Notes under the pieces: model-generated
Databases searched by the model: none
Told to the model about the DNA's origin: nothing
The model's input: the letters and a program-made list of their open reading frames with translations, nothing else
Shown: piece by piece, positions 1,965 to 14,057 of the stretch
How positions within the stretch are numbered: position 1 is the stretch's first letter
Layout: the number at the start of each line of letters is the position of its first letter
Source of the DNA: Thermodesulfovibrionales bacterium
GTDB taxonomy: Bacteria; Nitrospirota; Thermodesulfovibrionia; Thermodesulfovibrionales; UBA6898
Length of the DNA stretch: 14,057 bases
Direction: 5' to 3'
Assembly (NCBI GenBank): GCA_044450345.1
Contig: JBIOIY010000067.1
Span: 1-14,057 of the forward strand
Program-made: the position numbers and the translations under genes

Positions 1965-3845
1965 CTATATCTTAAGCCGCAGGCCAGCCTCGACCCATCT
2001 TCTGGGGTTCCTGAAGGCATCAACCAAATATTGAGAGCCGTTAAAGATATTGTGGGCGGTAAAGAAGACCTCCGCGTTTCTTTTACCAAAGGAAAGGACC
2101 TTTTTTGTGAGACTGAAATCCCATATCATGGAGTTATATTCGCCGCTTGTTGACGAGTCCGCGTTCCACCAGATATAATGGCCCTTAAGCAAGGCCCTAA
2201 GAGATTTGTTGTCATTGTAATGAACCCCCACATCAAAGGTATACCGCGGAATATTCTGCACTTCTTCCCCGGTGTCTCTATCAGTGGCATCGGTAAAGGC
2301 AACACCCGCAGAAAGGGAGATGTTATAGACCGGGACGGTTTTCAGCTCGAACTCGAATCCCTGTCTCCTCTGCTTTCCCTGGTTGACAGCCGTAAATGTC
2401 CCGTCACTCAAGGTCTCATTGAAAAGTGCATCAGTAATTTCATGCCTGAACGCTGTAGCCTTCAACCAGAGGTATTTAAGACCAGTTGACTCGATGCCTG
2501 CCTGCACAGACCATACCTTCTCCATCTTTAGATCCGGGTTTGGCACAGAGAAGGTACCCGTGCCGAAGGTCGCTCCAAGCGGGGGGGTACTGAAACCTCT
2601 TGCCCCAATAGCCCTCAGCATGGTCTTTTCACCCAGGTTATAAGTCACTCCCAGGCTTGGGCTCACGAAGCTGCCGTTGGTGCTCGTATGATCATACCTG
2701 ATGCCTGGAGTGAAGGCAAACTTGGCTGCTGTCATCGTGTCATTCACAAATACCGCCCACTTGCCAAGACTCTGTTTTCCGCCGGTGATATTATTTGACA
2801 CTAGCTCCCCGTAGTCATAGTCAAAGCCCGAGACCACATCATGAATGCTGTTTTTCCATGTGAACTTGAGGCTCCCCCCGCTGCTCTTATCGTCAATGTT
2901 GCTGGCCGATAGGATTTCCCCGGTGCTGAAGCTATTATTGATATGTTCCGCACGCTGACGCGAGGTCCTCAAGGACGCATTAAGGTCTGCGGTATCGGTC
3001 AACGAATAATTGAACGATAGTGTAGAGAAAAGATACTCGAAGTCATTGCCGAAGGATATATCAAAGTCGGGAAACTCCCCCTCTCCCCTTGACCCTTTGT
3101 TATAGCCAAAGGTAAACGTGACGTTGGCTTTTGACAAGACATCCCATCTTAATTTCGAATAAAGATTGTTCTCATAAAAAGAGGTGTTGGGTCTTAATCC
3201 GTTTGAAACAAGATTTCCGCCATACAGGTAATAGGAAAGACTCTCCACCTGACCGGAAACCTCAGCCCTGTAATCCCCCGTGTTCCTCTCTCCGTAAGAA
3301 GCGGAGAGCATTCCTCCCGCTTTCCGTGATCCATCGCCACCCTTTGTTATGATGTGAATTATTCCGCCCAGCGACGAACCCCACGTGGAGGAGGCCGGCC
3401 CCTTGATTATCTCAATCCTATCGATAATCTGGGCAGGAACAGCACCAATGTCGGCGAAGCTGTCGGAGAGGTTATTGAGTGTTACGTCATCGATAATCAC
3501 GATTGCGTGCCTGAATTCCGAGCCCTGTATCCGGACGGTATCAGCGCTTCCGGGGCCGCCCCGAGAGTCTACCTGAACCCCGGTTATGGTTAAAAGGACA
3601 TCGGCCAGCGTATGCGCGTTCATCTCCTCTATGTCTGCGGCCGTGATTACGGTCATGTTCTCGGCGACGTGGGAAATTGACTTAGGATGCCTCGTGGGAG
3701 TTACGACGAGGTCTTTGTCTTCGTAGAACATCTGGAGCGTATTGATTTCATCTTCAGGCTGTGCCCAGGCATCAGAGATAAATGAAACAGAAAAGGCGAA
3801 AAGACAGAGGGCCATTATTTTTTTTATTAATTGGTCACTGTTCAT
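1965..3845 (-). CDS. TonB-dependent outer membrane receptor
   Basis: Signal peptide, VVTPTR TonB-box region, plug motifs (TVITAADIE; IDRIEIIKGPASSTWGSSLGGIIHIITK), barrel motifs (NPDLKMEK, HNIFN) and an alternating C-terminal beta strand; 626 aa. Confidence 0.95.
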   Translation of the reverse strand: MNSDQLIKKIMALCLFAFSVSFISDAWAQPEDEINTLQMFYEDKDLVVTPTRHPKSISHVAENMTVITAADIEEMNAHTLADVLLTITGVQVDSRGGPGSADTVRIQGSEFRHAIVIIDDVTLNNLSDSFADIGAVPAQIIDRIEIIKGPASSTWGSSLGGIIHIITKGGDGSRKAGGMLSASYGERNTGDYRAEVSGQVESLSYYLYGGNLVSNGLRPNTSFYENNLYSKLRWDVLSKANVTFTFGYNKGSRGEGEFPDFDISFGNDFEYLFSTLSFNYSLTDTADLNASLRTSRQRAEHINNSFSTGEILSASNIDDKSSGGSLKFTWKNSIHDVVSGFDYDYGELVSNNITGGKQSLGKWAVFVNDTMTAAKFAFTPGIRYDHTSTNGSFVSPSLGVTYNLGEKTMLRAIGARGFSTPPLGATFGTGTFSVPNPDLKMEKVWSVQAGIESTGLKYLWLKATAFRHEITDALFNETLSDGTFTAVNQGKQRRQGFEFELKTVPVYNISLSAGVAFTDATDRDTGEEVQNIPRYTFDVGVHYNDNKSLRALLKGHYIWWNADSSTSGEYNSMIWDFSLTKKVLSFGKRNAEVFFTAHNIFNGSQYLVDAFRNPRRWVEAGLRLKI

Positions 3846-5170: not shown

Positions 5171-8100
5171 TCATTCGTCTTTAAAAAGTTTTGCGAACTT
5201 TTTCTGTGCCTGCGCCACCCGCCTTGATGGCTGGGGTTGAGGCAATGGCGACGAAGATGGAAGGTAGGTTGCGCTGTAAACCGGGTGGCCAGTTCCAACG
5301 GGGACCATATTCCCTGTAAGAATGTTTTCCTTTGTGCCGGACAGGGGATCGAGCCGCTTTCGCAGGGCCGCTTCGGCAAGAATTAGCGTTGTGTTCTGGA
5401 AAGAAGCAGCCGACAGCCAGCTGTCGGATAAAAGGGCGGCATCAGTAAGGCTAACGATAAGGGGCTTCGCAACGGCACGTTTGCCTTTCGTACGATCGTT
5501 TTCCTCGGCAAACATCCACTTTGACACGATCTCATCGACCACAAAGTCGGTGTCCCCGGGATCTACTATAAGGACCTTCGCAAGCATCTTTCTAAGTATA
5601 ATCTCCAGATGCTTGTCATTAAGCTCAACGCCCTGGCTCCGGTATACCTTCTGTACCTCATCGATGACGTGAAGGGCGACTTTTTTAGCCCCGAGAATCC
5701 TTAAAACGTCCAATATGTCGAGAGGGCCTTCGGCGAGAATATCTCCTTTTCTCACAACATCGCCGCTAAATATGTTGAGCTGTCTATATATGGAGACATC
5801 GCAGCGCCATCGGTCATTGTCGTTGATGATCTCAACGCCGAGCATTTTTCCCCGTGGCGGATAAATGGTTACCTGCCCGTCGATTTCCGCAATGACCGCC
5901 GTGTTCTGCATTTCCCTGATCTCGATCACCTGCAGAACGCGCTTTAGCCCGCCGGTGATGTCGGCGTTCTTTTCCGCCGCCTTTGGAACGTACGCAAGGA
6001 CATCGCCAGGGCTGACGTTCTGTCCTTCTTTGACAAGTACAATGGCCCCAATGGGAAGGTAATATTGTTTTTCCCCTATACTCACTTGCGGTACCGTGTG
6101 TTCAAATATCGCACTGACGATCGTTAGCGTTATGCCCGTTTTTGAGTCCATATTTCGTGTAATGGTTTTCCCGTCGGAGCAGCCGTTAAGTTTGGCAACG
6201 CCGCCGGCTGTCGCCACGAGTGGCAGATTGAATGGGTCCCAGTGGGCAAGCTTCTGACCGGGTTCGATGATATCCCATTCTTCCACAGTAAGGGTTGCAC
6301 CATAAGGTACGGACCCCGCGTCAGTCTCAGAGCCGTGTCTTGAAATAGATATACGCCCGTTTCGCCCAACCACAACAAGCCCCGCGTCTCCTCTGACAGC
6401 CAGGATATCCTTAAAAGTCACTGCCCCCTGCGACTTCGCGAAAAGGTCGGCCTTTGCCCCGGAGCCGGCCGCGCTGCCGCCTTCATGGAAGGTTCTCAGG
6501 GTAAGTTGCGTCCCCGGCTCGCCCACTGATTGTCCTGCTATGATCCCAACCGCATCACCTATTATCGGCAGAGCCCTCGTCGCAAGGTCGTGGCCATAAC
6601 ATAGGGCGCAAATTCCGGGCCTTTGAGCGCACGTAATAGGCGAGCGCACGGCCACCTCGCTGAAACCGGCTTCCTCGATTTTGGCCGCTATCTCCTTAGT
6701 CACTATATCGTTTCTGTGAGCCAGGACCTCGCCTGATACGGACTCACGCATTTCTTCGGCCAGCACTCTTCCTATAATGCGGTCTTTGAGTGGGATAACG
6801 AGATCGTCGCCATCGTAGAGCGCACTCAGGGGAAACCCGTCGGTGCAGCCGCAGTCATAGGCATTTACAATTACGTCATGGGCGCAATCCACAAGCCTGC
6901 GGGTAAAGTGTCCGGCGGTTTTGGTCTTCAGTGCCCCGTCCGCCCGGCCCTTTCGTGCGCCGTGGCACGAAAGCAGATACTCATGATAAGTGAGACCTTC
7001 TTTGAAATTTGACTTAATGGGGATCTCCACAAGCTCGCCATTGGGTTTAGCCATGAGGCCCCTCATGCCGGCCAGCTGGCGTATCTGCTCCCGGGAGCCC
7101 CTGGCACCGGAGTCGGCCATCATGAAGACCGAGTTGAATTCCTTCATATCGGTCCGCTCGGCCTCACTCAGGCCTTCGTGGTCGGCCACGCCGAGGCTTG
7201 CCATCACTTTGTCGGCGATCGCTTCCGATGCTTTCTTCCAAAGGTCAACAATCCTGTTGTGCTTTCCTTCCTCGTTGAGCAGTCCATTTGCAAACTCATC
7301 TAATACATCCTTTACCTGGGCTTCCGTCTCCGCTATGATCGCCTGTTTCTCAATTGGGATAGTGACGTCGCTTATAGAAAGAGAAATACCCGACAATGTG
7401 GCAAACTTAAATCCGATCTCTTTAATCTTGTCGAGGAATATCACGGTTGCCCCTTGGCCAGCCTGCTCATAGCACATCTCTAAGAGCTTGCCCAAATCCT
7501 TTTTCTTTAGCGTCTTGTTGACAGACGAGAAGGGTAGTGCGGGCGGAATAATCTCACTGAATATCACGCGGCCCGGGGTCGTATCAACGAGTTGCCCGTC
7601 GATTCTCACCTTTACCTTGGAATGCAGGTCGAGCAACTTTTGGTCATATGCCATGATCACGTCGTCTTTATCGGCAAATAATTTACCTTCTCCTGGGCAG
7701 CCACCTCGGTCTTTGGTAAGGTAGTAGACCCCGAGCACAATGTCCTGAGTCGGTGCTACACTGATTTTTCCACTGGCGGGCGACAGGATGTTATTGATTG
7801 ACATCATGAGTATGCGTGCCTCCACCTGAGCTTCAACCGTCACCGGCAAATGTACGCCCATCTGGTCGCCGTCGAAGTCCGCGTTGAAGGCCGAACACAC
7901 CAGAGGATGAAGACGTATCGCCCTCTCTTTGTGAAGAACCGGAGTGAATGCCTGTATCGACATACGATGCAGCGAAGGGGCACGGTTTAAAAGCACCGTC
8001 TTTTCACTGAGTACGTCCTCCAGGGCTTCGACCGATGCGGCTGTACGCTTCTCCACCATTATACGGGCATGCGCAAGCGACGAGGCGTAGCCCATCTTCC

Positions 8101-9223
8101 TCAGACGACTATAGACAAAAGGCCTGCAAATATCCATCGCCAGATCGAGCGGCAAGCCGCATTGATGCAACTTCAGCTCGGGCCCGACTGCTATCACGGA
8201 CCTACCGGAGTAGTCGGCGCGCTTTCCGAGCAGGTTGCGCCGCATCGTGCCCTCTTTCTTCTCGATCCTCGAGGAAAGAGACTTCAGCACTTTTTTTCCC
8301 GTGCGATCTTTCGCCATCTGCAGCTTTCCATTTGAAAAAAGCGCGTCCACGGCACCCTGGAGCAGTTTTCGCTCGATGTTAATGAGGGCCTCGGGCATGG
8401 CTCTCTGGTAGAGGCCTTGGAGACGATTGTTCCGGATGATTACGCGTGCATACAGGTCGTTGAGATCGGAACTCGCCACCGTCCCATCATCAAATACAAT
8501 CACGGGCCTTAGATCTGGCGGCATCACCGGAAGATGTGTCAGAAGTATCCACATTGGGTCAACACCGGATTTATATAGATCGCGCACAAGAAGTAACCGA
8601 GCGTTTACCCTTCGTGACGGCTTCTTGCCTCGGAGTTCGTTCATTAGGTGAGGGAGATTCAGCTCCTTCAGTTTTTTTCGGATGAGCTTGCCGCCGCTGA
8701 GCGCCCTAAAACCGCCATCATTTGAGTTCTCTGTCTCGTAGTGCAGGTAGGCGCTCGCTGAAATGATCTGATTCGTCTCGTAGGGACTTTCCCCGGGCTG
8801 CTCCACAACATAAGAATTACATTCGACAATCGCGTCGATTTGTCTAGGGGGAATGGCCAGCAGCAGGGCTAATGTCCGGCGATACCACGGATGCACGATA
8901 GGCACGGCCAGCTTGATATGCCCCATGCGTTTGCGCCGCTCTTTAGGGTCTGCAAGCGTCACGCCGCACCGGCTGCACCGAACGAGCTTTTTTCGGTAAT
9001 CGCGGTGATAGGTGCCGCAGCCACAGACACCGCGCTGGACCGGGCCGAAGATTCGCTGGCAAAGAAGACCGCCTGGAACGGGTACCATTGTTGCCGCATC
9101 AAGCGTCTCATGTCTGGTAACTTCGCCGTAGGACAACTCAAGCACGCGCTCAGGACTCATAAGGGAAATCCTCAATCCCTCAATTAGACCGTCTCTTTTT
9201 GTATCATCTTTTTTTTGTTGCAT
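5171..9223 (-). CDS. rpoC: DNA-directed RNA polymerase beta-prime subunit, divergent orphan paralogue
   Basis: 1350 aa with NADFDGD (7865-7885), N-terminal Zn site (CGC...CSRC), NLLGKRADYSGRSVI, LNRAPSLHR, second Zn site (C...C-x6-C-x2-C), trigger loop GEPGTQLTLRTFH, an SI3-type insertion and a C-terminal SAASFQ...KEN...GTG segment. No rpoB upstream and no rpsL downstream. Confidence 0.97.
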   Translation of the reverse strand: MQQKKDDTKRDGLIEGLRISLMSPERVLELSYGEVTRHETLDAATMVPVPGGLLCQRIFGPVQRGVCGCGTYHRDYRKKLVRCSRCGVTLADPKERRKRMGHIKLAVPIVHPWYRRTLALLLAIPPRQIDAIVECNSYVVEQPGESPYETNQIISASAYLHYETENSNDGGFRALSGGKLIRKKLKELNLPHLMNELRGKKPSRRVNARLLLVRDLYKSGVDPMWILLTHLPVMPPDLRPVIVFDDGTVASSDLNDLYARVIIRNNRLQGLYQRAMPEALINIERKLLQGAVDALFSNGKLQMAKDRTGKKVLKSLSSRIEKKEGTMRRNLLGKRADYSGRSVIAVGPELKLHQCGLPLDLAMDICRPFVYSRLRKMGYASSLAHARIMVEKRTAASVEALEDVLSEKTVLLNRAPSLHRMSIQAFTPVLHKERAIRLHPLVCSAFNADFDGDQMGVHLPVTVEAQVEARILMMSINNILSPASGKISVAPTQDIVLGVYYLTKDRGGCPGEGKLFADKDDVIMAYDQKLLDLHSKVKVRIDGQLVDTTPGRVIFSEIIPPALPFSSVNKTLKKKDLGKLLEMCYEQAGQGATVIFLDKIKEIGFKFATLSGISLSISDVTIPIEKQAIIAETEAQVKDVLDEFANGLLNEEGKHNRIVDLWKKASEAIADKVMASLGVADHEGLSEAERTDMKEFNSVFMMADSGARGSREQIRQLAGMRGLMAKPNGELVEIPIKSNFKEGLTYHEYLLSCHGARKGRADGALKTKTAGHFTRRLVDCAHDVIVNAYDCGCTDGFPLSALYDGDDLVIPLKDRIIGRVLAEEMRESVSGEVLAHRNDIVTKEIAAKIEEAGFSEVAVRSPITCAQRPGICALCYGHDLATRALPIIGDAVGIIAGQSVGEPGTQLTLRTFHEGGSAAGSGAKADLFAKSQGAVTFKDILAVRGDAGLVVVGRNGRISISRHGSETDAGSVPYGATLTVEEWDIIEPGQKLAHWDPFNLPLVATAGGVAKLNGCSDGKTITRNMDSKTGITLTIVSAIFEHTVPQVSIGEKQYYLPIGAIVLVKEGQNVSPGDVLAYVPKAAEKNADITGGLKRVLQVIEIREMQNTAVIAEIDGQVTIYPPRGKMLGVEIINDNDRWRCDVSIYRQLNIFSGDVVRKGDILAEGPLDILDVLRILGAKKVALHVIDEVQKVYRSQGVELNDKHLEIILRKMLAKVLIVDPGDTDFVVDEIVSKWMFAEENDRTKGKRAVAKPLIVSLTDAALLSDSWLSAASFQNTTLILAEAALRKRLDPLSGTKENILTGNMVPVGTGHPVYSATYLPSSSPLPQPQPSRRVAQAQKKFAKLFKDE

Positions 9224-9229
9224 TTGTCG

Positions 9230-9247
9230 TGATGCTTATGATGCTTA
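9230..9247. repeat. 9-bp tandem duplication TGATGCTTA x2
   Basis: Exact copies at 9230-9238 and 9239-9247; the second includes the upstream gene's stop codon. Confidence 0.8.
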
Positions 9248-10099
9248 AAGGAATGGTGCCTCGCCATCTCTAATGGTGATCCACTTCGTCCCGACAAAGC
9301 CGCCGCGTACGAAACTCTCGAACGTGCCGAAATACACGCGTTCGTATAGGTCATCGAGGCTTTTAAATACCTCATTTTTTTTGGCGTGTTTCTTTTCACT
9401 CTCTATATAGCGCGAAAAGTGCTCGCGTAGTATCTCGATTCTGCGTGTGTGAGTGCAGATGATAAAGCTCATCCACCTGTTCTTGACCCACAAGGTATGC
9501 GCCTTCGCTGCCACCAATCGCTCGTCGAGAGTCCCGTTGTCGATTTCGATACCCAGGGATTTTTGCCTGACTTTGTCTTTTTGCTGAAATGTGAAACGAA
9601 TGAACAGATCCGGATAGGGCATCCTTTTTTTTGCCCCCTTGGATGCGCTTTTAAGACTGTTTTCGTCCTCCATGGAAAAATCGTATATGACTTTGGCGCT
9701 TTCGCGCTTTATAGCCTTGACCACAGCTACTACCTGCATCTCGTGGGCGACAGTCCATTTATTTGGGAGGGTATACCGGATACGCCTGGCATCCCAACTT
9801 TCCCGCTCTATGAGGACAGCGGCTGAGTGGGGGGTCAAGGCATAGAGAGCATGAACGCCTTTGCCGTGTCGGTCACAGTAAATCCTGGACGCAATATAGT
9901 CATCCTTCTTTAACGCGAATATTCTTTTTTGAAAGGCGCTATACGACATATCGTGCTTCGTCTTCTTTTTCCCGTCTGTTTCATCCACCGGATTCTTGGC
10001 TATGACCCTCTTTAGTTCACTTATGATCTGCTCGGCTGTCATAGGGCCGCTGGATAGCACCCGGAAAATATCCATATCTCTGGATGTGATGAATGCCAT
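9245..10099 (-). CDS. Replication-relaxation family protein (N-terminal wHTH + PD-(D/E)xK-like domain)
   Basis: ITSRDMDIFRVL...MTAEQI N-terminus, YALT wing, AHEMQV, PYPDLFI and GIEIDNGT match the PF13814-type pattern by eye. Starts 3 nt after the parB stop, with AGGAG upstream. Confidence 0.75.
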   Translation of the reverse strand: MAFITSRDMDIFRVLSSGPMTAEQIISELKRVIAKNPVDETDGKKKTKHDMSYSAFQKRIFALKKDDYIASRIYCDRHGKGVHALYALTPHSAAVLIERESWDARRIRYTLPNKWTVAHEMQVVAVVKAIKRESAKVIYDFSMEDENSLKSASKGAKKRMPYPDLFIRFTFQQKDKVRQKSLGIEIDNGTLDERLVAAKAHTLWVKNRWMSFIICTHTRRIEILREHFSRYIESEKKHAKKNEVFKSLDDLYERVYFGTFESFVRGGFVGTKWITIRDGEAPFL

Positions 10100-10102
10100 T
10101 CC

Positions 10103-10999
10103 TTATTTCTCCTTTGCCCCTATCTCGGCAACTTTTTGCCTGAAGGCAGAAAAGCCCGCATCGATGGCAGTCAATGTGTCCTCAGCTACAGCCTCACCTT
10201 TCTTGATACGGATGCGGAAAATGATATCCTTAGCGGATTCTCTAATCATCCCAGGGTCATCACTATCACCATCCCCTTTTTTATTTAAAAACTTTAACAG
10301 TAGCCCGGGGATGCTTTCCTTGGGTCCTTCCCTCCCGAACCGGCGAATGATGCGGTCATATTCGCGGCGGTTTGCTTTCGATATTTTTTTTAGCTCGCCT
10401 ACAATTTTCGTGTATCCCTCGGCTGTCGCCCTGTCGACCTCTGAAGCCTGATTCAGAAAAAGGGCCGAGACTTCCGGGATACTGGTGATCGCCTCATGCA
10501 ACTTGAAATATTTTGCAACCGTCGACTTATCCTTGCCCACCTGTTTAGCTACCCCCTCCGCGGTTTCGTAGTCCTGCCTCAACTCGACATACCCAAACAC
10601 AGTGTCCACGAAGTTCAGGTCTTCGCGCTGGATATTTTCCAGCAATCCTTCCCGTCTCATTTCTTTGTCATCATAGTCTTTGATGAATGCGGGAATTTCT
10701 GTGAGGCCCGCAAGTCGAGCTGCCCGGACACGCCGTTCGCCTGCGACGATCTCAAACAGATGAGGCGCTTCTGGGTCCTTCGCCTTTCGCACAGTAATCG
10801 GGCTTCTAACTCCGTCGGCTTTGATGGTTTCGGCAAGGCCGTTGAGAGCGGCTTGGTCGAAAGCTTTTCTTGGCTGAAATGGGTTCGGCGCTACCTTATC
10901 CAGCGGGATAAAAACGGCCTCGGCAGCCACCGAGTTTTTGTCCATGCTTGCTGCCGCGTCCCTGAGAATGTCATGTGTCGTTGCTCGTTTTGTGTCCAA
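10103..10999 (-). CDS. parB: ParB/RepB/Spo0J family CTPase DNA-clamp protein
   Basis: PNPFQPRKAF, IVAGERRVRAA (GxxRxxA arginine patch), ENIQREDL and an HTH (AEGVAKQVGKDKSTVAKY); GGAGG 6 nt before the TTG start. No parA in the window. Confidence 0.93.
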   Translation of the reverse strand: MDTKRATTHDILRDAAASMDKNSVAAEAVFIPLDKVAPNPFQPRKAFDQAALNGLAETIKADGVRSPITVRKAKDPEAPHLFEIVAGERRVRAARLAGLTEIPAFIKDYDDKEMRREGLLENIQREDLNFVDTVFGYVELRQDYETAEGVAKQVGKDKSTVAKYFKLHEAITSIPEVSALFLNQASEVDRATAEGYTKIVGELKKISKANRREYDRIIRRFGREGPKESIPGLLLKFLNKKGDGDSDDPGMIRESAKDIIFRIRIKKGEAVAEDTLTAIDAGFSAFRQKVAEIGAKEK

Positions 11000-11040
11000 G
11001 ATAAACCTCCATGAGTTGTTTTTTTAAGGACTGTTAAGTG

Positions 11041-11068
11041 ATATTAAAGAGCACCGAACCAAGTGCAA
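11041..11068 (-). promoter_or_regulatory. Candidate sigma70 promoter for the parB operon
   Basis: Minus strand TTGCAC-16 nt-TAATAT about 40 nt upstream of the parB start. Confidence 0.4.
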
Positions 11069-11106
11069 AAAAAAAGTGGCGCTCCGCCACCCCTTTTCCG
11101 CACTTT
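11061..11106 (-). terminator. Intrinsic terminator upstream of parB
   Basis: Minus strand GTGGCG-GAG-CGCCAC followed by T9, extendable by GGAAAAGGG/U9 and AAGTGC/GCACTT pairing. Confidence 0.7.
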
Positions 11107-11112
11107 CACCCA

Positions 11113-11184
11113 CTGGTAAAAATCCTAGTAAAACAGCTCGAAAAAAACATGGTAAATACCCCCGTAAAAACCCTGGTAAATCTG
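11113..11184. repeat. Six degenerate 12-bp tandem repeats (consensus about CTGGTAAAAAcc)
   Basis: CTGGTAAAAATC CTAGTAAAACAG CTCGAAAAAAAC ATGGTAAATACC CCCGTAAAAACC CTGGTAAATCTG. Confidence 0.75.
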
Positions 11185-11479
11185 CAAACCCTCTTTTCCC
11201 CCTTTGGTTTCCTTAAATATCAGCTACTTACAGACCTATTACTGACCGCCTGCGGCTTTCCATTAACCCCTCCCACTACCACTTTTTTTGACCCTTGTTT
11301 TATTACCCTCTTTTTTGCCCTTTATTCCTAACGCCCCTCAACTCCTCTTTCTGCCCGTAAGCCTACGTATTTTCAGCGTTTTGTAATACTTCTAGCCTCT
11401 CTCGTAAAACTCTTTTTTTAGACCTCTTGTGCATTAACATTTTTTCCCTTTGTTTTCCTTGTGTTAGCTGTCCTCTTCC

Positions 11480-11508
11480 TTGACCGAAGGGTCATTTCCC
11501 GGTATAAT
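11480..11508 (+). promoter_or_regulatory. Near-consensus sigma70 promoter with an inverted repeat over the -35
   Basis: TTGACC-17 nt-TATAAT; TGACC-GAAG-GGTCA at 11481-11494. Confidence 0.7.
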
Positions 11509-11932
11509 TATAGTAATTCGTTGTACCGACATAGGATTTACTCCTCATAAAGCTCTCTGAGCCTGATATAAAGCTGGCAACTCTTTTTGTGCCTTTCGAT
11601 GGCTTAATTACGCCACTACCCCTTAATTTATTTGTACTGCTTACTTATTTACAGTCACTTCCTTATTTATTGATTTCCCTTCCCCTTTTGTAAGCCCCTC
11701 TTTTTGCTGTCGCAATTCGCCGGTATCCTCCCTTGCCTTTATCACGGTCGATTTCACTACTTGGGGTGTCTTATGCCAACTTGCAACTACATATTTCTTA
11801 AAAGCGTTTCTATTCCTGTTGTACTGCTTATCCTGGCAGGAGATTTATGACCCCTGTCACACCTTTTGCAAGTATTGTCATAGCGGCGATTCCCCATGAA
11901 CCGTACCGGGAGGGGGGAGGCTCATCGCTATA

Positions 11933-12082
11933 TCAATCAACCCTTAGCCTTATGTTTCCACCGCGGTAGTAGTCACTCTTACTTGCATCGTCTGCAGCAT
12001 CGTTTAATGGCTTCATGAAGAAGACCATTAAGCCGAACAGCCAGGCAGAAGTTATCTCGATTGCCGATCCCACCAGTTCCAT
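11933..12082 (-). CDS. Possible 49-aa small membrane peptide
   Basis: MELVGSAIEITSAWLFGLMVFFMKPLNDAADDASKSDYYRGGNIRLRVD*: hydrophobic N-half and charged C-half. The GAGG is too close to the ATG for a good RBS. Confidence 0.3.
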   Translation of the reverse strand: MELVGSAIEITSAWLFGLMVFFMKPLNDAADDASKSDYYRGGNIRLRVD

Positions 12083-12377
12083 TTCCTCAGCGCCATTTCC
12101 CTATTGCCTCTCATTTCTTATTCACAAAAAAAATCAGCTTTTCGTCAAGACCCTCCCTCCCCAAATATTTTCTTTTCCCAAAATAAAATCAAAATTCTCG
12201 ACTCCGCAATCCAACAGATTCTTTCCCGGAAGATTACCCCCTTTCTTTTTTCCAACCGCTTCAGACAACTCCTTTCGTTTGTTTTCGACAGCAACAAACC
12301 ATACTGATTCACCCACCATTCCTCTTCACCCACGCATCAAATCTTTAGTCGTTAAGAGGCATTTCTTTGTCTCTCCG

Positions 12378-12460
12378 CAACGGGAAAGGCATGTCAACTT
12401 ACTTTCCCTTTGTTCAGCATCTCCAGTTCTAAACTCTGGCAAAAAGTGACGTAGTTGGAC
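12378..12460 (+). ncRNA. Conserved structured upstream element, copy 1 (RNA or ssDNA)
   Basis: GGGAAAG-[GCATGTCAACTTA]-CTTTCCC; CCAG-[TTCTAAACT]-CTGG; GTGACGTAGTTGG. Confidence 0.65.
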
Positions 12461-12522
12461 CTTCTTCTCGGCTTACCTTTGGTGAGTCGCCAGCTTTAAC
12501 AGTCTTTCTCTAGGAGGATTCC

Positions 12523-12654
12523 ATGAAGACACAGGTATTGGTCCTGGTTCTCGCTTTTTCGATGATCATCAGTCTCGGCTTATATGCCGGCAAAGTTCTC
12601 AAGGATTTTCAGCAGAGGCAGATCGAAAAAGTCGAACACGCCCTTAATCAGTAG
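12523..12654 (+). CDS. 43-aa single-pass membrane or secreted hypothetical protein
   Basis: AGGAGG 5 nt before ATG; MKTQVLVLVLAFSMIISLGLYAGKVLKDFQQRQIEKVEHALNQ*. Not in the ORF track. Confidence 0.75.
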   Translation: MKTQVLVLVLAFSMIISLGLYAGKVLKDFQQRQIEKVEHALNQ

Positions 12655-12710
12655 CCCCCATCTTTACACGAGACATTTCGCAGCATCACAGCAGATTTAC
12701 CCTCATACGA

Positions 12711-12794
12711 TTCCTTTTGAGGCATGCCAACTTACTCGAAGGGAAGTTTTGACACACCAGTCCTAAACCCTGGTCAAAGGTGACGTAGTCGGGC
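12711..12794 (+). ncRNA. Conserved structured upstream element, copy 2
   Basis: TTCCTTTTGAG-[GCATGCCAACTTA]-CTCGAAGGGAA (11 bp, two G-U); ACCAG-[TCCTAAACC]-CTGGT; GTGACGTAGTCGG. Confidence 0.65.
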
Positions 12795-12817
12795 AAAAGA
12801 CAATTCGGAGGTTCCAG

Positions 12818-13048
12818 ATGAGCGGAATGAAAACAGTGTCAAGTCAGCTTTCAAGATGGTTCGGTGGCGTTGATGCCCAGAGACTCTTGAACGGCATTCA
12901 GGCCGAGATATCCCATGACCGTGCCGCAAAGCTATTCGGCGTCAACGAAGACAGACCCTCCGCCTATATCCTGATGGACAACCTTTCTTTCTCTGTAAAA
13001 AGGAACGTCACTGCCGCCACCGTCTTCGTACGTGTTGCGAACTGCTGA
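12818..13048 (+). CDS. Hypothetical protein (76 aa)
   Basis: GGAGG at 12807-12811, 6 nt before ATG, directly after element copy 2. No recognised domain. Confidence 0.65.
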   Translation: MSGMKTVSSQLSRWFGGVDAQRLLNGIQAEISHDRAAKLFGVNEDRPSAYILMDNLSFSVKRNVTAATVFVRVANC

Positions 13049-13059
13049 CCCTGATAAAC

Positions 13060-13305
13060 ATGAGAGGAAAGAAAAAGCCGACTGAAAAGACGGTAGTGGT
13101 AATCAGAAGCATGCCGGAGTTTCATACTTTGTACGGCGGGGATATGCCGATGTTTGGCAAGAACCACGGGAACGAAAAGATCCGGACAGTTGAGGGTCTA
13201 CGCGGGTTCCGTACGAAGAGAGGCCATTTTATAGACCGTGCATGGGTAAAGCAGGCGCAGCTATCTGCGGGGCAACTGTCTTGTTTTCCGAAGATCCGAT
13301 TGTGA
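13060..13305 (+). CDS. Hypothetical basic protein (81 aa)
   Basis: ATG 11 nt after the previous stop on the same strand; no clear RBS; no recognised domain. Confidence 0.5.
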   Translation: MRGKKKPTEKTVVVIRSMPEFHTLYGGDMPMFGKNHGNEKIRTVEGLRGFRTKRGHFIDRAWVKQAQLSAGQLSCFPKIRL

Positions 13306-13455
13306 TGAATGGCAATGAGTCCCTAATGGCCGCCTGCTGCAGAAACCGGCTGCAACGCATACGGAGAAAGCTACGGGCATCCGACAACCCTTAACCGGCC
13401 GGCAAAGCGTTTCAGACAGTTTAAGGCCGGCAAAACAACCAACAAGGAGAAAAAT

Positions 13456-13656
13456 ATGGCAAGCAAGATCGCCAAAGACAATCTGCGCAAGGCTATCGAG
13501 ACCTGCGAGCGCTATCAAAGAGGCATCAATCTTTCCGACGTGAGAGTGACAAATCTCAGAATAGGGAAGGGCACGGTCGCAGCCGACGTCACTGTGGTTA
13601 ACGACGATGGGCATACGAAGAAGCTCCGTAACAGATACGACATCTTCTCACTTTAG
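13456..13656 (+). CDS. Hypothetical protein (66 aa)
   Basis: AAGGAG followed by an A-rich spacer and ATG; plausible alpha+beta pattern; no recognised domain. Confidence 0.7.
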   Translation: MASKIAKDNLRKAIETCERYQRGINLSDVRVTNLRIGKGTVAADVTVVNDDGHTKKLRNRYDIFSL

Positions 13657-13867
13657 CTCCGTCCGCATACAACCTTCCCCTATATGTCTGTCATCCCCCG
13701 TAAGTCAAGACGAGTTCCTTTCCAGAACCTACATCACAGATACGCTGTTATCCCGCAATAAGCTGGAAGGACTTCCAACCAGTATGAAGGACTGAACCAG
13801 GGTAGTACACACTCGAGCAAAGATCACGGACATGTTCGACATGATCGTCTGATCTGCCCACGATGAA

Positions 13868-13896
13868 ACGCAATAGGAAAGTACGCAATAGGAAAG
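13868..13896. repeat. Tandem duplication ACGCAATAGGAAAG x2 (15-nt period)
   Basis: Exact 14-mers at 13868-13881 and 13883-13896; duplicates most of the 5' arm of element copy 3. Confidence 0.85.
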
Positions 13897-13976
13897 GGCA
13901 TGTCGGCTTACCTTCCCTGTTGCTCCGGTGGTTTCTAAACTTCCACCCTGTCAAATAAAGTGACGTATGCCGAGAC
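13885..13976 (+). ncRNA. Conserved structured upstream element, copy 3
   Basis: GCAATAGGAAAGG-[GCATGTCGGCTTA]-CCTTCCCTGTTGC (13 bp, one mismatch, one G-U); GGTGG-[TTTCTAAACTT]-CCACC; GTGACGTATGCCGA. Confidence 0.65.
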
Positions 13977-13998
13977 CAAATCAAAAAAGAGGTGTCCC

Positions 13999-14057
13999 AT
14001 GACAAAAACAACATATCTTGAAAAAGCAGGTCAGCCCACGAAGACTTTCTGGAGCAC
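13999..14057 (+). CDS. Start of a hypothetical protein (runs off the right edge)
   Basis: GAGGT 5 nt before ATG; MTKTTYLEKAGQPTKTFLE..., directly after element copy 3. Confidence 0.55.
   Translation, partial: MTKTTYLEKAGQPTKTFWS

Follow-up and report, generated by a model that had tools for sequence, protein, structure and literature searches.

A structured element of about 85 nt, composed of two hairpins and an H-type pseudoknot, occurs three times in the window, by which we mean the whole 14,057-nucleotide stretch of DNA that was analysed. The motif represents a previously uncatalogued structured RNA family without a match in Rfam 15, and its status as a genuine structured element is strongly supported. 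We interpret the copies as RNA elements located in the mRNA-sense leaders of small genes, early or accessory in role, that belong to one family of integrated mobile elements within a Nitrospirota family, and estimate the probability of this reading at roughly one half. That the motif is a functional RNA of the sense strand acting in cis is probable, and that it works specifically as a factor-binding leader is a tentative proposal.

Architecture of the three copies

All three copies are located on the plus strand, at the sites reported in a preliminary description of this DNA, and they share a common architecture. A first stem (P1) closes a 13-nt loop, a second stem (P2) carries a TTCTAAACT-type loop, and an A-rich GTGAYGTA junction precedes a 5-nt strand at the 3' side that pairs with the P1 loop to form the pseudoknot. 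Copies and helices were delineated from the sequence, constrained folds and covariance-model scores.

12377..12458, plus strand: motif copy 1 (sequence, constrained fold), scoring 105 bits (R1) and 97.1 bits (R2)
12377-12388 with 12402-12413, plus strand: P1 of copy 1, with a 1x1 C.U interruption; loop 12389-12401
12423-12426 with 12436-12439, plus strand: P2 of copy 1, loop TTCTAAACT
12440-12453, plus strand: junction of copy 1, including GTGACGTA at 12446-12453
12394-12398 (TCAAC) with 12454-12458 (GTTGG), plus strand: pseudoknot of copy 1
12711..12792, plus strand: motif copy 2 (sequence, constrained fold), scoring 103.5 bits (R1)
12711-12721 with 12735-12745, plus strand: P1 of copy 2, 11 bp including T.G wobbles; loop 12722-12734
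12756-12760 with 12770-12774, plus strand: P2 of copy 2; GTGACGTA at 12780-12787
12727-12731 (CCAAC) with 12788-12792 (GTCGG), plus strand: pseudoknot of copy 2, one A.C mismatch
13885..13973, plus strand: motif copy 3 (constrained fold), scoring 25.2 bits (R1) and 67.7 bits (R2)
13885-13897 with 13911-13923, plus strand: P1 of copy 3, one A.C interruption; loop 13898-13910
13927-13931 with 13943-13947, plus strand: P2 of copy 3, 11-nt loop; GTGACGTA at 13960-13967
13903-13907 (TCGGC) with 13969-13973 (GCCGA), plus strand: pseudoknot of copy 3

The P1 sequence of copy 2 is wholly unlike that of copy 1. In the orthologues of copy 2 the 3' strand of the pseudoknot reads GTTGG instead of the mismatched GTCGG, and in copy 3, unlike in the other two, one extra base separates GTGACGTA from the 3' strand of the pseudoknot. 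The boundary between two X20 contigs falls at position 12407, within P1 of copy 1; the contigs represent different strains, and this was given no weight.

The composite pattern GCATGNCNNCTTA-N(25-60)-GTGACGTA was found three times in forward and never in reverse orientation in the entire 3.19-Mb assembly, all three on this contig, and the reversed-pattern control in the same assembly yielded 0 and 0. Within the window, GTGACGTA was observed 3 times against an expectation of 0.16 (reached in 0 of 200 shuffles), and the loop pattern 3 times against 0.69 (5 of 200 shuffles). Used by itself and with a single mismatch tolerated, the loop pattern was non-specific genome-wide, with 59+63 matches versus 60+65 in the control. 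Single-sequence folding-energy z-scores for the three copies were 0.00, -0.19 and -1.70, which is not unusual; the support for the structure comes from covariation and not from stability.

Covariation in the wider family

The collected set consisted of 28 copies from 12 loci, six in genomes from a single Nitrospirota family and six on contigs from metagenomes, and the covariation test used an alignment of 29 rows, 26 of them distinct. In this alignment 89.3% of the cells were paired compared to 59.7% in shuffles (0 of 500 reached the observed value), although such cell counts overstate the number of independent events since many of the sequences are orthologous and the 28 copies fall into about 12 paralogue or lineage types. 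The covariation score of 0.823 was not reached by any of 500 shuffled alignments (0.256), and sliding the partners by 1-3 columns gave 0.249 or less. All three helices covary, with double-sided changes at 10 of 11 pairs in P1, at all 4 pairs in P2 and at 3 of 5 pairs in the pseudoknot, and RNAalifold recovered identical P1 and P2 helices.

The pseudoknot provides an independent test, because it was absent from the model used to build the alignment. For eight types of 5' strand, the mean number of pairs was 4.875 out of 5 with the strand's own partner versus 3.68 with the partners of others, and none of 10,000 partner permutations reached the observed total. A ninth type, ACGAC with GTCGT, was identified in genome G191, so that nine 5' strand types are represented in the family, each with a matching partner. 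Both the stem covariation and the loop-to-tail pseudoknot, originally proposed from three copies, hold in the larger set, in which compensatory changes give the fold strong support.

Across the family, P1 spans 7-13 bp and closes a loop of 12-13 nt, five bases of which take part in the pseudoknot. P2 is a short hairpin with a conserved TTCTAAACT-type loop, set on a long connecting strand, and the junction is a conserved A-rich GYGAYG(Y)A directly 5' of the 3' strand of the pseudoknot. About 30 unpaired bases are conserved in the motif. The sequence blocks that were first described as invariant are less strict in the wider family, where both the opening five bases of the loop and GTGACGTA show variants such as GTGATGTA, GCGATGTA, CCGATGTA and GTGACGCA.

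Database searches and distribution

Searches of the whole window against Rfam 15 at the gathering threshold gave no matches. At E<=10 the segment 11000-14057 yielded 4 weak matches, and at E<=1 the loci L017, L018, L022, L030 and L044 yielded 6, none of them over a copy. No Rfam family matches the motif. ARAGORN predicted no tRNA or tmRNA in the window. Neither the plasmid nor the phage collection contained a match to 12300-14057 in distant blastn searches. The metagenome collections were scanned by exact pattern. Seven stretches in viral contigs that matched a two-block pattern were rejected as chance matches, having neither a flanking stem nor CTAAAC, and a second pattern gave 0 matches in viral contigs.

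Among 401 genomes sampled across the phylum, the motif pattern was confined to the window's own family, where it was found in 5 of 54 genomes; none was found in the other families sampled. The motif family is thus small and rare and its general importance uncertain.

Association with a mobile element encoding an orphan beta-prime

Upstream of the copies, the window contains a module on the minus strand.

5171..10999, minus strand: context module with an orphan beta-prime, a Replic_Relax-type ORF and ParB
5171-9223, minus strand: orphan beta-prime, full-length, 46% identical to the rpoC product of the host
9245-10099, minus strand: 284-aa ORF, itself without a Pfam match, whose orthologues match Replic_Relax
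10103-10999, minus strand: ParB, from the Pfam scan

The orphan beta-prime retains the four zinc-binding cysteines. A small sigma factor, comprising regions 2 and 4, is likewise encoded by the elements. The copies are arranged in series, with 3-4 per element within 1.6-4.7 kb, in a region of small genes, toxin-antitoxin pairs and DUF3085. A 1.4-kb ORF-free region adjoins the Replic_Relax protein and ParB. In the element of genome G174, the ORFs scanned (about 46 kb) include RNR, dUTPase, a clamp-like protein and helicases, and showed no oriT, no relaxase of a known MOB type and no type IV secretion Pfam family. Terminator-like hairpins are present within the motif-bearing operons of this element, and a tyrosine recombinase is located at its end.

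Co-occurrence with the orphan rpoC was complete in that all six motif-bearing genomes contain the ParB, Replic_Relax and rpoC module, at a distance of 1.3-8 kb between motif and beta-prime; the two most divergent metagenome contigs, L017 and L022, were too short to judge. A related element in genome G152 has the module, a sigma-like gene and an orthologue of the ORF that follows copy 3, yet it has no motif. A filter-free search of G152 gave nothing that overlapped the expected small-gene region and nothing below an E value of 0.97, nor was a second repeated motif found in this element. Because the orthologous downstream gene is carried here without the motif, the motif is dispensable. With regard to the suggestion in the preliminary description that the motif could be the signal for the beta-prime, the link is an association at the level of the element, and a specific tie to beta-prime is unproven because of G152.

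These data bear on the possibility that the motif is a put-like nascent RNA that docks on RNA polymerase, possibly via the element's own beta-prime, and alters pausing or termination on early operons, which we consider quite unlikely. The consistent proximity of the beta-prime, its similarity to the host protein with all four cysteines kept, the sigma factor and the terminator-like hairpins in the G174 operons are in line with such a role, as is the similarity in size and in the two stem-loops to the HK022 put RNA, which acts via the zinc-binding domain of beta-prime (PMC9378689). On the other hand, G152 has beta-prime, Replic_Relax, ParB and a sigma-like gene without the motif, and the co-location is with the whole element and not with rpoC specifically. 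Furthermore, put lacks a pseudoknot and is present once per early operon (PMC9378689), whereas 3-4 copies are found serially here, with no predicted terminator between those in the window.

An extended version of this idea is that the motif and the beta-prime of the element, together with sigma, form a cognate pair, such that the RNA would dock on a hybrid polymerase, much as put RNA does on the zinc-binding domain of the host beta-prime, and license transcription of early operons through terminators or Rho-sensitive leaders. Such a pairing is improbable; if true, it would amount to a takeover module made of an RNA and a polymerase subunit on a mobile element. A new class of self-cleaving ribozymes or an exonuclease-blocking RNA knot would be almost equally novel.

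Strand preference and block spacing

The orientation of all 28 copies is that of the flanking genes. Under identical constraints, the plus strand folded better for 17 of 22 distinct copies and the minus strand for 5, with mean constrained folding energies of -17.4 and -15.5 kcal/mol, respectively. The preference for the plus strand is moderate and not absolute, given the 5 of 22 copies that favour the other strand. The cells of P1 and P2 contained 44 G.U versus 15 A.C combinations, so the initial observation that G-U pairs favour the plus strand extends to the larger set. P1 energies ranged from -8.4 to -16.2 kcal/mol as RNA and from -2.0 to -6.9 kcal/mol as DNA, and the P2 region yielded -0.1 to -5.3 kcal/mol with DNA parameters. 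The conserved loop-to-tail pairing, the sense orientation of all copies and the greater strength of P1 as RNA were counted in favour of a sense-strand RNA.

The distance from CTAAAC to CGTA/TGTA was 15, 15, 19, 21 and 23 nt among copies, and that from CTTAC to TTCTAAAC was 21-27 nt. Since the former distance varies, the motif is not a DNA site of fixed spacing. The blocks CTAAAC ... CGTA are loosely reminiscent of ECF-type -35/-10 motifs, a reading that was rejected on the basis of the 15-23 nt spacing.

It is highly improbable that the motif is a double-stranded DNA site with stems that are incidental palindromes, be it an operator or a promoter used by the sigma factor of the element or by a hybrid polymerase. 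The presence of conserved blocks upstream of genes, the loose ECF-like resemblance and the element-encoded sigma factor with its regions 2 and 4 would fit a promoter, and no consistent sigma-70-type promoter was found elsewhere upstream of the copies. The scans also showed no shared upstream k-mer at a fixed distance. Besides the variable spacing of both block pairs, however, three helices maintain their pairing via double-sided changes, a non-palindromic loop-to-tail pairing in nine variants would be needless for a duplex site, and the wobble pairs are asymmetric between the strands.

A single-stranded-DNA element, such as a Frpo/ssi-like promoter, a priming site or a single-strand origin used during transfer or replication of single-stranded DNA, is very unlikely. 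The location of the Replic_Relax protein and ParB beside the 1.4-kb ORF-free region, the small genes, toxin-antitoxin pairs and DUF3085 that recall leading regions, and the ability of P1 and P2 to fold also under DNA parameters are compatible with this explanation. However, the DNA hairpins are weak, a 5-bp loop-to-tail pseudoknot would be unusual among single-stranded-DNA signals, the copies track gene starts, and relaxase and type IV secretion families were absent from the ORFs scanned in G174. The better-folding strand is that of the mRNA sense (17 versus 5) and hence no template for the adjacent genes, unlike in Frpo (PMC11541004). Moreover, stem sequences differ completely among copies and contain no conserved -35 or -10 duplex, so the Frpo/CUP-like promoter put forward in the preliminary description is not supported. 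Taken together, the folding of the sense strand and the variable block spacing favour an RNA that acts in cis within mRNA leaders, and speak against both a Frpo-like single-stranded promoter and a double-stranded promoter.

Downstream genes and a putative leader function

Each copy in the window is followed by an ORF with an ATG preceded by a Shine-Dalgarno (SD) sequence, at 12523, 12818 and 13999, as had been noted from the sequence.

12523..12654, plus strand: 43-aa ORF that follows copy 1 (SD sequence AGGAGG), encoding a small hydrophobic peptide; conserved in L013 and L018
12818..13048, plus strand: 76-aa ORF after copy 2, conserved in L013 and L018
13999..14057, plus strand: 5' part of the ORF that follows copy 3, truncated where the contig ends; 84 aa in complete orthologues

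The distance from the 3' strand of the pseudoknot to the start codon is 64, 25 and 25 nt for copies 1, 2 and 3, respectively. Besides copies 2 and 3, it is 25 nt in L017 and about 30 nt in G191; for four others the range is about 43-65 nt. In L022, intervals of 290 and 375 nt separate the two copies from the next ORF, and the copies are followed by a long repeated unit with a 34-nt palindrome, suggesting that the motif may there lie upstream of a promoter or operator. The ORF after copy 3 belongs to a small cysteine-rich family (C-G-C ... C-x2-H) that is also found downstream of the motif in L017 and G174. The 43-aa and 76-aa ORFs have no Pfam or PHROG match, and the small downstream proteins gave no informative match in Pfam, PHROGs or the ESM Atlas. 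Overall, the genes downstream of the motif are heterogeneous and unannotated.

No run recorded as RNA is listed for 11400-14057. At the locus, two runs labelled metatranscriptomic, which probably contain DNA, and two DNA runs gave only short contigs and strain variants; that the motif is transcribed is something we infer. A terminator scan predicted no terminator after the motif, and none on the plus strand between the three copies in the window. By eye, no complementarity between SD and motif was conserved between orthologues, and the SD was located outside any conserved helix. With regard to generic features of riboswitches, the motif has the complexity of an aptamer, there is no terminator or SD-sequestering helix, and the putatively regulated genes are heterogeneous.

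A self-cleaving ribozyme or RNA-processing signal, which would cut a polycistronic early transcript ahead of groups of genes, so that the downstream message would begin with a structured 5' end, is unlikely. Small ribozymes of phage-like regions are multi-copy, intergenic and co-oriented with unrelated genes, and have a pseudoknotted core. The motif shares this profile, with no expression platform and with conserved unpaired bases around the pseudoknot, and a single long transcript would fit the absence of predicted plus-strand terminators between the copies. Against this, no Rfam ribozyme family was matched even at E<=10 for the copies in the window or at E<=1 for the five other loci, and the motif has neither P3/P1.1 of HDV-like ribozymes nor the P2/P3 arrangement of pistol. 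Neither of these topologies fits.

Under our preferred reading of the motif as a leader RNA, the element would act in cis on the RNA that bears it, and the roughly 30 conserved unpaired bases may form a tertiary core or a binding pocket. Such a core would lie approximately 14-17 nt upstream of the SD in roughly half of the paralogue types, corresponding to the 5' edge of the ribosome footprint. The bound state, whether with a small ligand, with a protein encoded by the element or the host, or as the folded knot alone, could in turn determine how readily ribosomes load onto the downstream cistron, how fast that cistron decays from its 5' end, or both.

The motif is a new structured-RNA family for a phylum and a type of mobile element without catalogued cis-acting RNAs. 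Comparably complex motifs without an expression platform have in earlier cases been recognised as ribozymes, riboswitches or polymerase-modifying RNAs of new types. Unusually, the host element encodes both a full-length orphan beta-prime and a small sigma factor, and the motif offers a concrete handle on the control of early genes by such an element.

Comparison with known systems

Integron attC sites have conserved inverse-core and core sequences at both ends. Like attC, the motif is structured, is located between small ORFs that appear promoterless, and has short complementary strands bounding its conserved part. Unlike in attC, the paired 5-mers vary (GCCGA, GCGGG, GTGGC, GTCGC, GTCGT), the 5' strand is located in a hairpin loop and there are invariant single-stranded blocks. 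An attC reading was rejected because of the variable cores, with nine 5' types.

The motif resembles small ribozymes such as pistol, HDV-like and hatchet in being multi-copy, intergenic and co-oriented, with a compact pseudoknotted core and no expression platform. It differs from them in having no Rfam ribozyme match and in a helix order unlike that of pistol and HDV-like ribozymes.

In topology, the motif is reminiscent of H-type pseudoknot leaders with a hairpin in the long loop, such as the preQ1-II-type aptamers. In both, a hairpin loop pairs with the 3' tail, a second hairpin is inserted, the length is about 80 nt, unpaired bases are conserved and the location is in 5' leaders. Unlike these aptamers, the motif has no similarity to any Rfam family, the variable 3' strand of its pseudoknot excludes the SD, and it precedes unrelated small ORFs of mobile elements that imply no ligand.

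In Frpo, the -35, -10 and UP elements are recreated by a long hairpin of the transferred (template) strand, which thereby imitates double-stranded DNA (PMC11541004). The motif is similar to the Frpo/ssi elements in consisting of repeated structured elements just upstream of small early genes and beside a replication/partition region. It differs in that no sequence is conserved in its stems, folding is better on the sense strand, and there is a conserved pseudoknot.

The HK022 put RNA is about 70 nt long and located downstream of early promoters (PMC9378689). The loop-to-tail pseudoknot and the 3-4 serial copies set the motif apart from put. Like put, the motif is about 70-85 nt in size, has two stem-loops and would belong to early transcripts of mobile elements, and the elements that bear it have a beta-prime of their own.

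Three copies of a conserved pseudoknot

The motif is present in three copies, and the sequence bears out their positions and strand as reported in the preliminary description, which was accurate overall.

12377-12458, + strand: copy 1
12711-12792, + strand: copy 2
13885-13973, + strand: copy 3

A composite pattern (the 13-nt loop pattern, 25-60 nt, GTGACGTA) had three matches in the 3.19 Mb assembly of 86 contigs, all forward and all in the window, which is the entire contig C67; the reverse strand and a reversed-pattern control gave none. The block GTGACGTA was observed three times in the window against 0.16 expected (reached in 0 of 200 shuffles) and the loop pattern three times against 0.69 expected (5 of 200), while the loop pattern by itself, when one mismatch was allowed, was not specific genome-wide (122 matches versus 125 in the control). 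Single-sequence folding of the + strand was unremarkable (z-scores 0.00, -0.19 and -1.70), and the claim of a structure must therefore rest on comparative evidence.

A 15-nt tandem duplication (13868-13897) lies across the 5' strand of the first hairpin (P1) of copy 3; the first 14 nt of its units are identical (13868-13881 and 13883-13896), and one unit is absent from contigs of related strains. At position 12407, in the 3' strand of copy 1 P1, one 240-nt contig ends and another starts at the same base. Both derive from a single run labelled metatranscriptomic and flagged as probably DNA, and they probably represent different strains, since their difference counts differ.

With loop and junction kept open, constrained folding gave every copy a P1 of 7-13 bp with a loop of 12-13 nt and a second hairpin (P2) of 3-5 bp with a loop of 9-11 nt, and in every copy five P1-loop bases are complementary to five bases 3' of the junction. 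The P1 sequence is unrelated between paralogues: its 5' strand is purine-rich in copies 1 and 3, pyrimidine-rich in copy 2 and the metagenome contig L017, and different again in the genomes G174 and G191 and the metagenome contig L022.

Covariation was quantified on a model-made alignment that was fitted to P1 and P2, and is thus biased in their favour; the pseudoknot was absent from the model and was added by hand. With this bias, standard pairs made up 89.3% of 514 cells versus 59.7% in column shuffles, and the covariation score was 0.823 versus 0.256 (0 of 500 shuffles reached either value), falling to <=0.249 when partners were slid by 1-3 columns. The pseudoknot cells were paired in 81.5% of cases, despite the copy-3 group being one base out of register, with double-sided changes at 3 of 5 pairs. 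RNAalifold recovered the same P1 and P2, with double-sided changes at 14 of 15 pairs. In a register-aware comparison, eight pseudoknot 5' strands (TCAAC, CCAAC, CTAAC, TCCGC, TCGGC, GCCAC, GCGAC and TCGAC) matched their own partners at a mean of 4.875 of 5 positions versus 3.68 for other partners, and a ninth type, ACGAC with GTCGT, occurs in G191. Single mismatches were found in three combinations (window copy 2, copy 1 of locus L020, and the copy 2 lineage of L018/G198).

Both parts of the proposed structure were thus upheld, the covarying stems by double-sided changes at 10 of 11 P1 and 4 of 4 P2 pairs in the 29-row set, to which the same bias applies, and the loop-to-tail pairing by nine 5' types with partners and a permutation test on eight of them in which 0 of 10,000 rearrangements reached the observed total. 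Comparative sequence analysis shows each copy to be a predicted, conserved H-type pseudoknot with an embedded hairpin and about 30 conserved unpaired bases.

Family consensus in element order (P1, loop, linker, P2, junction, pseudoknot 3' strand)
P1 loop: N-C-A-K-R, the pairing five N-C-N-N-C, then T-T-A
Linker: variable, 9-14 nt
P2 loop: TTCTAAACT; two G174 copies deviate
Junction: A-rich, ending G-Y-G-A-Y-G-(Y)-A

Relatives and distribution

Rfam 15 gave no family match at the gathering score and, at E<=10, none overlapping a copy, so that the earlier suggestion of novelty stands: the motif belongs to no Rfam family. A covariance model (R1) built from copies 1 and 2 also recovered copy 3. 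The exact three-block pattern was found on two contigs, from two Nitrospirae MAGs, among 185,579 species genomes, and on six contigs of the metagenome collection. A distant blastn search with 12300-14057, run against 72,556 plasmids and 50,697 phage records, had no match. In IMG/VR, a looser pattern gave 7 stretches that proved on inspection to be chance matches, and a second pattern gave none.

Genomes with the motif in searches with R2, a second covariance model from 20 copies, and with a two-block pattern
R2, even phylum sample: 1 of 151 (only the genome that holds the window)
R2, close relatives: 3 of 41
R2, family to which the window belongs: 5 of 54 (G000, G153, G174, G191, G198)
Two-block pattern across the phylum sample: 2 of 401, each from the window's family

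The total set comprises 28 copies in six genomes, including L015, the second MAG of the species-genome scan, and six metagenome contigs; the copy list has 29 rows with one copy entered twice, of which 26 are distinct, and represents about a dozen paralogue or lineage types. The motif is a real, new and well-supported structured-RNA family of narrow distribution.

Host element and the orphan beta-prime gene

All six genomes with the motif have, 1.3-8 kb from it, a conserved module encoding ParB, a protein of the Replic_Relax family and an orphan beta-prime of full length, and the beta-prime gene adjoins the other two in G152, G153, G174, G191, G198 and L015. The elements also encode a small sigma factor (regions 2 and 4, about 200 aa), Xre-RES toxin-antitoxin pairs, a CsgG-like protein and helicases, and that of G174 in addition a tyrosine recombinase, a clamp-like protein, a dUTPase and a ribonucleotide reductase. 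The window beta-prime is an extra copy with 46% identity to the host rpoC on contig C6 and conserves the four zinc-binding cysteines.

5171-9223, - strand: orphan beta-prime, full length, 1350 aa

G152, from the same genus, has the same module, a sigma-like gene and an orthologue of a Cys-rich gene, and is without the motif: a filter-free model search yielded nothing below E 0.97 and nothing over the expected region, and no substitute repeated motif was found there. Presence of the motif is therefore optional within the element family. The rpoC, Replic_Relax, ParB and sigma genes of G152 are the same and its small genes (L039, 11800-15600) differ in order, so the small-gene region appears to be mosaic between elements. 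As for the earlier suggestion that the motif could be the signal for the beta-prime, the module lies near the motif in 6 of 6 genomes, but G152 has the module without it; the association is with the whole element, and not demonstrably with beta-prime, the link being co-location at element level. No rpoC was seen in 3.3 kb of L017 and 7.5 kb of L022, two divergent metagenome contigs whose short length allows no judgement.

In G174 and G198, of one genus, the orphan rpoC abuts a gene for an RseP-like M50 peptidase (L031, 1402-2484; L053, 7321-8388), followed in G174 by the tyrosine recombinase; the junction suggests a shared insertion site. The window's neighbours differ from these and encode an ABC substrate-binding protein and a TonB receptor.

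RNA or DNA

Under mirrored constraints, the + strand was the more stable in 17 and the - strand in 5 of 22 distinct copies (mean -17.4 versus -15.5 kcal/mol). P1 and P2 contain 44 G.U versus 15 A.C cells, upholding the reported plus-strand bias, with a count tilted towards the strand used for the alignment. Every copy runs in the same direction as the genes around it. The hairpins lose stability two- to threefold when folded as DNA (P1 -2.0 to -6.9 versus -8.4 to -16.2 kcal/mol). Block spacing varies across copies, from CTAAAC to CGTA/TGTA by 15, 15, 19, 21 or 23 nt and from CTTAC to TTCTAAAC by 21-27 nt, which is natural for a fold and incompatible with a bipartite duplex promoter. From these observations we infer that the motif is a sense-strand RNA, presumably transcribed and acting in cis. 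Strand, spacing and covariation all disfavour function as DNA: a single-stranded promoter, priming site or single-strand origin is very improbable, and a duplex promoter or operator is less likely still.

Position relative to genes and likely role

The pseudoknot strands of copies 1, 2 and 3 end 64, 25 and 25 nt before an ATG with a good Shine-Dalgarno sequence. L017 and G191 have similarly short spacings, of 25 nt and about 30 nt, and in three G174 copies the value is about 43-65 nt; for the first G174 copy, the next ORF found with a Shine-Dalgarno sequence is a 31-aa reading frame 292 nt away. In L022, 290 and 375 nt separate the two copies from the next ORF. After each copy comes a repeat of about 200-300 nt (1495-1700 and 3040-3255) that contains a long hairpin and a 34-nt perfect, operator-like palindrome, and in this contig the motif may belong to a larger unit, regulatory or non-coding. 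Upstream of the copies, no sigma-70-type promoter recurs at a fixed distance and no k-mer is shared at one; a promoter-like site ends 29 nt before one G174 copy, and in G174 and G191 a copy is preceded, at 25-45 nt, by a terminator-like hairpin.

The downstream genes are heterogeneous and unannotated. In three divergent elements (that of window copy 3, L013 and L018; L017; G174) the motif precedes a gene of a small Cys-rich family (57-88 aa, invariant C-G-C ... C-x2-H) without Pfam or PHROG match; in G152 the family occurs without the motif.

Members of the Cys-rich family
L013, 7424-7678
L018, 3503-3757
L017, 2065-2304
L030, 13863-14036
L039, 13113-13367, - strand

Between parB and copy 1, 1.4 kb (11000-12370) lack convincing ORFs. 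The + strand of this region appears pyrimidine-rich by eye, with a cluster of short GGTAAA/AGTAAA-type repeats at about 11115-11185 and a near-consensus sigma-70 promoter (TTGACC, 17 nt, TATAAT) at 11480-11508 pointing at the motif region; the stretch may combine an origin or partition site with a long leader. In L017, a TnpB-type fragment (804-1154, Cas12f1-like TNB domain) lies about 800 nt upstream of the motif, and after it comes an RNA match to the HgcC family that is weak and sub-threshold (E 0.015).

Among the copies examined, the Shine-Dalgarno sequence never lies in a conserved helix and no terminator was found 3' of the motif, hence there is no classical expression platform. Four kinds of RNA were considered because complexity without such a platform fits them. 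We tentatively favour, at a probability of roughly 0.3 that includes a nuclease-blocking 5' knot, a leader that would bind a factor or ligand and, from its place at the 5' edge of the ribosome footprint, modulate decay or the loading of ribosomes. An element for self-cleavage or processing of a polycistronic early transcript, which the same complexity would fit, is unlikely, and a put-like RNA docking on the polymerase is somewhat less likely still.

Comparison with known systems

Pseudoknot aptamers with an embedded hairpin have a topology like that of the motif, with no sequence relationship to it. Sites of the attC type are defined by their cores, and this reading is ruled out because the paired 5-mers of the motif vary. 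Two features that define Frpo are a duplex that mimics a promoter and a template strand that folds (PMC11541004); the motif fails both and, with strand, spacing and covariation also against it, the single-stranded-DNA promoter initially suggested is not supported. The likeness to put (PMC9378689) is limited to size, two stem-loops and residence in a mobile element.
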